NCBI RefSeq assembly: GCF_003334335.1
Contig: NZ_QOWQ01000020.1
Direction: 5' to 3' (one strand)
Length of the DNA stretch: 64,000 nt
Origin: Escherichia coli
GTDB lineage: Bacteria > Pseudomonadota > Gammaproteobacteria > Enterobacterales > Enterobacteriaceae
This document shows, in pieces, positions 60,054-60,289 of the stretch (position 1 is the stretch's first letter; every line of letters begins with the position of its first letter). Under the pieces are notes generated by a model that worked only from the letters and a program-made list of their open reading frames with translations, did no database searches and was not told where the DNA came from. A program made the position numbers and the translations under genes.

Positions 60054-60104
60054 TTAGTTCCCCGTCCTGAATCTTGAGAAACAGAATTTTGTGCTGTTAT
60101 TCAT
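60054..60104 (-). CDS. ilvX: small ORF ilvX between ilvL and ilvG
   Basis: Minus strand ATG at 60104: [16 protein letters not shown], stop 2 nt before ilvG ATG. Confidence 0.6.
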
Positions 60105-60134
60105 TGTCTGCTCCTCGGTTATGTTTTTAAGGTC

Positions 60135-60168
60135 AAAAAAAACCCCCGGACCTTTCGGTGCGGGGGTC
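60135..60168 (-). terminator. ilvGMEDA attenuator terminator
   Basis: Minus strand GACCCCCGCACCGAAAGGTCCGGGGG hairpin followed by TTTTTTTT, just downstream of ilvL. Confidence 0.85.
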
Positions 60169-60190
60169 TTAGTTCGTTAAGGCTTGATCT

Positions 60191-60289
60191 CTAAGCCTTT
60201 CCTCGTCCAAGTGCAGCCCCGCACGGTGGGATAATAATCACCACCACGCTAATCACGACCAGGCTAATCACTCGTAGAAGGGCTGTCAT
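60191..60289 (-). CDS. ilvL: ilv operon leader peptide (Val/Ile/Leu-rich)
   Basis: 32-codon ORF MTALLRVISLVVISVVVIIIPPCGAALGRGKA. Confidence 0.9.
   Translation of the reverse strand: MTALLRVISLVVISVVVIIIPPCGAALGRGKA

Follow-up and report, generated by a model that had tools for sequence, protein, structure and literature searches.

[quoted passage not shown] All of its features sit on the minus strand, which the first-pass annotation had not given, and its limits are set by the final base of the ilvX stop codon and the A of the ilvL ATG. The arrangement, comprising the ilvL leader, a terminator hairpin and ilvX ahead of ilvG, is ordinary and already known; mild novelty is confined to the way in which ilvX has evolved and to the palindrome, resembling an Lrp site, that lies within it. 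Positions below refer to the window, that is, the whole 64-kb stretch of DNA that was analysed (64,000 nt).

58405–60051, minus strand: ilvG, acetolactate synthase II large subunit (intact 548-aa ORF; WP_001012608.1)
60054–60104, minus strand: ilvX, 16 codons plus TAA (from translation; RefSeq 'peptide IlvX', WP_001387183.1)
60059–60063, minus strand: ilvG Shine-Dalgarno sequence GGGGA, 7 nt before the ATG and inside ilvX codons 14–15 (direct reading)
60082–60096, no strand assigned: 15-nt palindromic core within ilvX codons 3–8, CAGCACAAAATTCTG (plus strand CAGAATTTTGTGCTG), resembling the Lrp consensus YAGHAWATTWTDCTR
60111–60116, minus strand: ilvX Shine-Dalgarno sequence GAGGAG, 6 nt before the ATG (direct reading; conserved across Enterobacterales)
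60135–60142, minus strand: U8 tract of the intrinsic terminator (direct reading)
60143–60166, minus strand: terminator hairpin, CCCCCGCACC GAAA GGUCCGGGGG (from folds); its 5' arm, 60158–60165, is common to the antiterminator
60191–60289, minus strand: ilvL, ilv operon leader peptide, 32 codons plus a TAG stop (translation, NF007744, PF08046, WP_001311244.1)
60217–60224, minus strand: upstream strand of the antiterminator, GUGCGGGG, in ilvL codons 22–25 (pairs with 60158–60165 in the nascent-transcript fold)
60230–60280, minus strand: regulatory Leu, Val and Ile codons, ilvL codons 4–20 (codon list, masked folds, PMC6123439)

A 671-nt query around the site has a match in every one of the 5426 complete E. 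coli genomes, 5425 of which carry it unbroken. Strain MRE162 is 100% identical to the source DNA over the 671 nt tested, and its RefSeq annotation places ilvL (WP_001311244.1), ilvX (WP_001387183.1), ilvG, ilvM and ilvE at the matching positions, with yifB, maoP and hdfR upstream of ilvL. As annotated in this identical DNA, the attenuator lies directly upstream of the ilvGME genes and on the same strand. A K-12 derivative agrees with the source at every base between the core promoter and the start of ilvG; just two differences occur in the 671 nt, and these lie farther upstream than the core promoter (60513, C here and T in the K-12 derivative; and 60414–60420 in the AT-rich upstream region, A7 here and A6 in the K-12 derivative). 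The A7 run is present in the source and in MRE162, and A6 in the K-12 derivative and three other aligned E. coli strains; the difference may be a genuine polymorphism in homopolymer length or else an artefact of assembly. Among four diverse E. coli strains, polymorphisms cluster upstream of the promoter.

Several statements of the first-pass annotation are settled by these comparisons. Its description of the regulatory region as wild-type holds for the leader, the attenuator and ilvX, which are identical to those of the K-12 derivative and MRE162, and the features are indeed known; the positions of ilvL and ilvX correspond exactly to those in the RefSeq annotation. The alignment with annotated ilvL and ilvX that it proposed reveals no mismatch in peptide or hairpin, with ilvGME present downstream. 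The coding content that it saw below the 60-aa ORF cut-off consists of two annotated genes, the 32-codon ilvL and the 16-codon ilvX, which show real coding features beneath that length. The small ORF was also correctly placed 2 nt before the ilvG ATG: its TAA occupies 60056–60054 and is followed by CT and then by the ATG at 60051–60049.

Because ilvG is intact, and is not the frameshift allele of K-12, the source is a non-K-12 E. coli. The stretch is an ordinary segment of the E. coli chromosome, with an ilv attenuator that is wild-type and intact and an ilvG that, unlike the K-12 allele, is functional. Elsewhere in the window, Rfam and ARAGORN detect the GlmZ small RNA (23971–24177, minus strand), the trxA 5' UTR thermometer (44819–44918, minus strand), a cluster of four tRNAs (27801–28234, minus strand) and, at 63580–63910 on the minus strand, a 5S rRNA with tRNA-Asp and tRNA-Trp that marks the end of an rrn operon.

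The leader peptide and the attenuator hairpins

Translation of 60191–60289 on the minus strand gives MTALLRVISLVVISVVVIIIPPCGAALGRGKA followed by the stop codon. Branched-chain residues make up 15 of its 32 positions (4 Leu, 5 Ile and 6 Val), and a 32-aa leader with 15 such residues is described in PMC6123439. The peptide matches the NCBIfam equivalog NF007744 over positions 1–32 of 32 (81.9 bits, cut-off 59) and Pfam PF08046 (E = 4.4e-17), and it is invariant among the four diverse E. coli strains.

Between the leader ORF ilvL and the first structural gene, as in ribosome-mediated attenuators, is an intrinsic terminator, which precedes ilvX and is formed by ACCCCCGCACC-GAAA-GGUCCGGGGG and exactly eight U residues (60142–60135). 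Folded in isolation, the hairpin has an energy of -21.2 kcal/mol with flanking A:U pairs included, and the isolated antiterminator element one of -28.5 kcal/mol. Both elements that the first-pass annotation had called intact are so: the Val/Ile/Leu-rich peptide passes both family models, and the GC-rich hairpin with its U8 tract is represented by the stem at 60143–60166 and the T8 at 60135–60142. The fold of the leader RNA has a z-score of -4.09 against shuffled sequences. In addition, Rfam family RF02744 (Rev39_5p_UTR) matches 60071–60363 on the minus strand with 157.4 bits (gathering threshold 88) over model positions 1–300 of 300; the match takes in the promoter-proximal part of the leader, ilvL and the terminator, and reaches halfway into ilvX. 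The fold z-score, the matches to NF007744, PF08046 and RF02744, and the presence of the region in every one of the complete genomes together argue that the features of the ilv leader did not arise by chance. The minus-strand hairpin escaped a generic terminator scan, probably owing to the C/C mismatch inside its stem; the scan's sole output was a weak artefact on the plus strand.

When the entire leader is folded at equilibrium with ribosome masks, the terminator is always retained and no switch is visible. This indicates a kinetic switch, and folding was therefore carried out on the nascent transcript, extended as far as the terminator loop. In this fold GUGCGGGG (60224–60217) pairs with CCCCGCAC (60165–60158), the 5' arm of the terminator. 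The pairing forms in the unmasked transcript and with a ribosome footprint at codons 4, 7, 10, 12, 17 or 19; it is not formed with the footprint at codon 15, and is absent with the footprint at codon 20 or 22, where it reaches the GUGCGGGG strand. In the model, the antiterminator is mutually exclusive with the terminator and the outcome is set by ribosome position, reproducing the classical scheme (PMC6123439). The footprint mask is crude: with the A site at codon 22 it leaves the antiterminator unformed, whereas pausing at Pro21-Pro22 induces ilvG experimentally. This discrepancy is a limit of the footprint model and not of the identification, which no observation contradicts.

Transcription would first yield a leader RNA encoding the 32-residue IlvL, rich in Leu, Val and Ile codons. 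With charged branched-chain tRNAs plentiful, the ribosome would reach the end of ilvL and cover GUGCGGGG, allowing the GC-rich hairpin and U8 tract to form and to stop transcription before ilvX and ilvG. With these tRNAs scarce, the ribosome would stall in the Leu, Val and Ile codons, GUGCGGGG would pair with CCCCGCAC, and RNA polymerase, the terminator being blocked, would read on. The first ORF of the read-through transcript would be the 16-codon ilvX, with its strong Shine-Dalgarno sequence and a stop codon 2 nt before the ilvG start.

Stalling at the branched-chain codons of ilvL is summarised in PMC6123439. For the identical K-12 sequence, RNA-seq density falls 45-fold from ilvL to ilvG, and ribosome pausing in ilvL, including at Pro21-Pro22, induces ilvG (10.1101/2021.05.27.446073). 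Laboratory evolution has yielded adaptive SNPs at +47/+48 after ilvL and -39 before ilvX (PMC4166923); as the spacing is identical to that of the K-12 derivative, we infer that these would correspond to 60144/60143, at the base of the 3' arm of the terminator. The response to amino acids in vivo and the translation of ilvX are points that, for this DNA, we infer or take from the literature.

The leader survey covered 80 loci encoding ilvG homologues, with one genome per species. A nearly identical leader peptide and a GC stem with a T run occur throughout the Enterobacterales, from Escherichia to Yersinia, and altered but recognisably related Ile/Val-rich leaders are found in Vibrio, Aeromonas, Shewanella and others.

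Conservation and variation of ilvX

To our knowledge, no function has so far been described for IlvX. The 16 residues encoded here are the same, and stand at the same position before ilvG, as WP_001387183.1 in MRE162 and in the K-12 derivative. Across species, the Shine-Dalgarno sequence and start codon of ilvX are conserved and stop codons are avoided in its frame, features that lend indirect support to its translation in vivo. The ORF recurs at exactly -53 to -2 relative to the ilvG ATG, with zero indels, in about 33 other Enterobacterales species; ORFs of this type range from Escherichia to Yersinia, Serratia, Pantoea, Erwinia, Pectobacterium and Rahnella (loci L003–L043). Over 35 species the start codon is ATG in 31 and GTG in 3 and is lost in 1, and the stop codon, always at -5 to -3, is TAA in 32, TGA in 2 and TAG in 1. 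The stop thus keeps its place within a few nucleotides of the ilvG start in all 35, a trait of translationally coupled upstream ORFs (uORFs). Also in all 35 the ilvX frame is open, whereas the other two frames contain stops in 33 and 23 species. In a column-shuffle test, the number of species with a stop in the ilvX frame is 0 against 4.4 expected (P = 0.003), and the other frames behave as expected.

The peptide itself is variable. Entropies at the three codon positions are 0.73, 1.01 and 0.96 in ilvX against 0.05, 0.07 and 0.95 in the first ilvG codons, so that ilvX is without three-base periodicity. In 11 of 11 comparisons with E. coli the amino-acid identity of IlvX is no higher than its nucleotide identity, the reverse of what is seen for IlvG, and outside the closest genera IlvX retains 44–62% identity where IlvG retains 94–98%. 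As frame and position are kept while the peptide varies, selection seems to act on the open frame and on the placement of its start and stop rather than on the peptide.

Two E. coli strains differ from the source in this region. In O157:H7 F6321 (L084, 516–566) a T-to-C change at the equivalent of 60077 produces IlvX S10P (WP_100635202.1), a non-conservative change tolerated in a successful lineage. In the chicken isolate ECN24 an IS30-like element, ISApl1 (L086, 2076–3050), is inserted between the U tract and ilvX, at a site equivalent to just after 60131, and parts ilvXGM from the leader.

Possible roles of ilvX

The comparative pattern points to a role for ilvX in cis, such as translational coupling with ilvG, more than to a function of its peptide. 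Among the explanations considered, we tentatively favour, at somewhat less than an even chance, a position-locked uORF that would deliver terminating ribosomes 2 nt from the ilvG start or re-load ribosomes soon after the attenuator. The indel-free arrangement and constant stop position, the ATG or GTG start in 34 of 35 species, the open frame with its avoidance of stops, and the lack of codon periodicity are all consistent with such a role, as are short ORFs in the Vibrionaceae. In Grimontia, Salinivibrio and Vibrio (L050, L051, L072 and L080) these ORFs have 18–22 codons and a Shine-Dalgarno sequence, extend from between -53 and -65 to +4, and overlap the ilvG start through the sequence ATGA, although their peptides are unrelated to IlvX; they may represent a convergent or a diverged coupling arrangement.

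Against a cis-acting uORF, coupling is not obviously required, as ilvG has its own Shine-Dalgarno sequence, kept as GGGGA or GGAGA across species. Folds of the junction revealed no conserved structure that would mask the ilvG start: the 113-nt ilvX–ilvG segment of E. coli folds no more stably than shuffled sequences (z = -0.52), and RNAalifold over 32 species gives a weak GU-rich consensus (-3.5 kcal/mol) and no convincing start-masking structure. The start codon of ilvX is, moreover, missing in Photorhabdus, Pluralibacter and Edwardsiella. Within the same region (60065–60116, minus strand), the ilvX Shine-Dalgarno segment GAGGAGCAGA can pair with UCUGUUUCUC in ilvX codons 7–10; this hairpin is unproven, being 84% paired across species without covariation and not outperforming shuffled sequences.

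A second explanation is that nucleotide conservation within ilvX reflects an Lrp-type DNA operator or an RNA element, with the frame partly a by-product; we consider this rather unlikely. The best-conserved nucleotides of ilvX form the 15-nt palindromic core at -45 to -31 (60096–60082), whose offset is fixed at -45 in species that keep the indel-free arrangement. The Lrp SELEX consensus is YAGHAWATTWTDCTR; it was chosen for comparison after the motif had been seen, so that the comparison is post hoc. The palindrome has 2 mismatches to this string here and 0–1 in many species, against a high background: over the window as a whole, 95 matches have up to 3 mismatches where 70 would be expected, which is hardly an enrichment. 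Within the 125 nt preceding ilvG, the best match has 0–3 mismatches in 40 of 40 Enterobacterales loci, compared with 3–6 in control regions of equal size inside ilvG, and the palindrome persists in Edwardsiella (L048) and Pluralibacter (L018), both of which lack the ilvX start codon. The consensus string is in use in PMC5554404, and Lrp is reported, in PMC6123439 citing Rhee et al. 1996, to bind the ilvG promoter/leader region. An operator would nevertheless leave unexplained the conserved Shine-Dalgarno sequence and ATG, the switching between stop codons and the avoidance of stops. The palindrome at 60082–60096 is a lead, a candidate Lrp-type site recognised from its sequence.

That IlvX is a functional 16-residue peptide acting in trans, for instance on acetolactate synthase or a membrane target, is improbable: the motif S-T/I-K-F-C-F-S-R is fairly constant within the Enterobacteriaceae and PMC9299463, citing Hemm et al. 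2008 and 2010, describes ilvX as encoding an expressed small peptide, but its identity falls across the order as given above, changes at second codon positions are frequent (ATA/ACA, TTC/TCC/TGC), the conserved stretch coincides with a nucleotide palindrome, which is retained even in species without the start codon, and O157:H7 carries S10P. The same source reports no detectable regulation of ilvX by GcvB.

Returning to a role in cis, we propose, as a conjecture that we think has a smaller chance of being right than wrong, that ilvX is a position-locked translated uORF handing ribosomes to ilvG, superimposed on an Lrp-like operator (60082–60096) and on the ilvG Shine-Dalgarno sequence, and not kept for its peptide; a trans-acting peptide or a largely incidental frame is possible. 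If the proposal were true, three cis signals would overlap within the 51 nt of ilvX, and the name 'IlvX' would stand for a regulatory device and not for a protein. The conserved frame and position, the variable peptide and the overlap with an Lrp-like sequence make this a concrete and cheaply testable hypothesis, of modest value.

Comparison with known leaders

RF02744, the soft rot Enterobacteriaceae Rev 39 5' UTR, owes its definition as an RNA element to plant pathogens, and nothing in the name points to ilvL or ilvX. Judged by the extent of the match, this family, named after a Pectobacterium 5' UTR, appears to be the ilv/ilvG leader under another name.

The ilvL–ilvX–ilvG leader of K-12 is identical in sequence to the source between the core promoter and nucleotide 100 of ilvG, with the same IlvL and IlvX accessions, spacing, terminator and U8 tract. 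The two differ in ilvG, which is frameshifted in K-12 and intact, at 548 aa, in the source.

The trpL, leuL, hisL, thrL and ivbL attenuators likewise combine a leader ORF rich in regulatory codons with alternative hairpins and a U tract. Unlike these, the ilv attenuator is multivalent, responding to Leu, Val and Ile, and its terminator is separated from the first enzyme gene by another very short ORF, ilvX.
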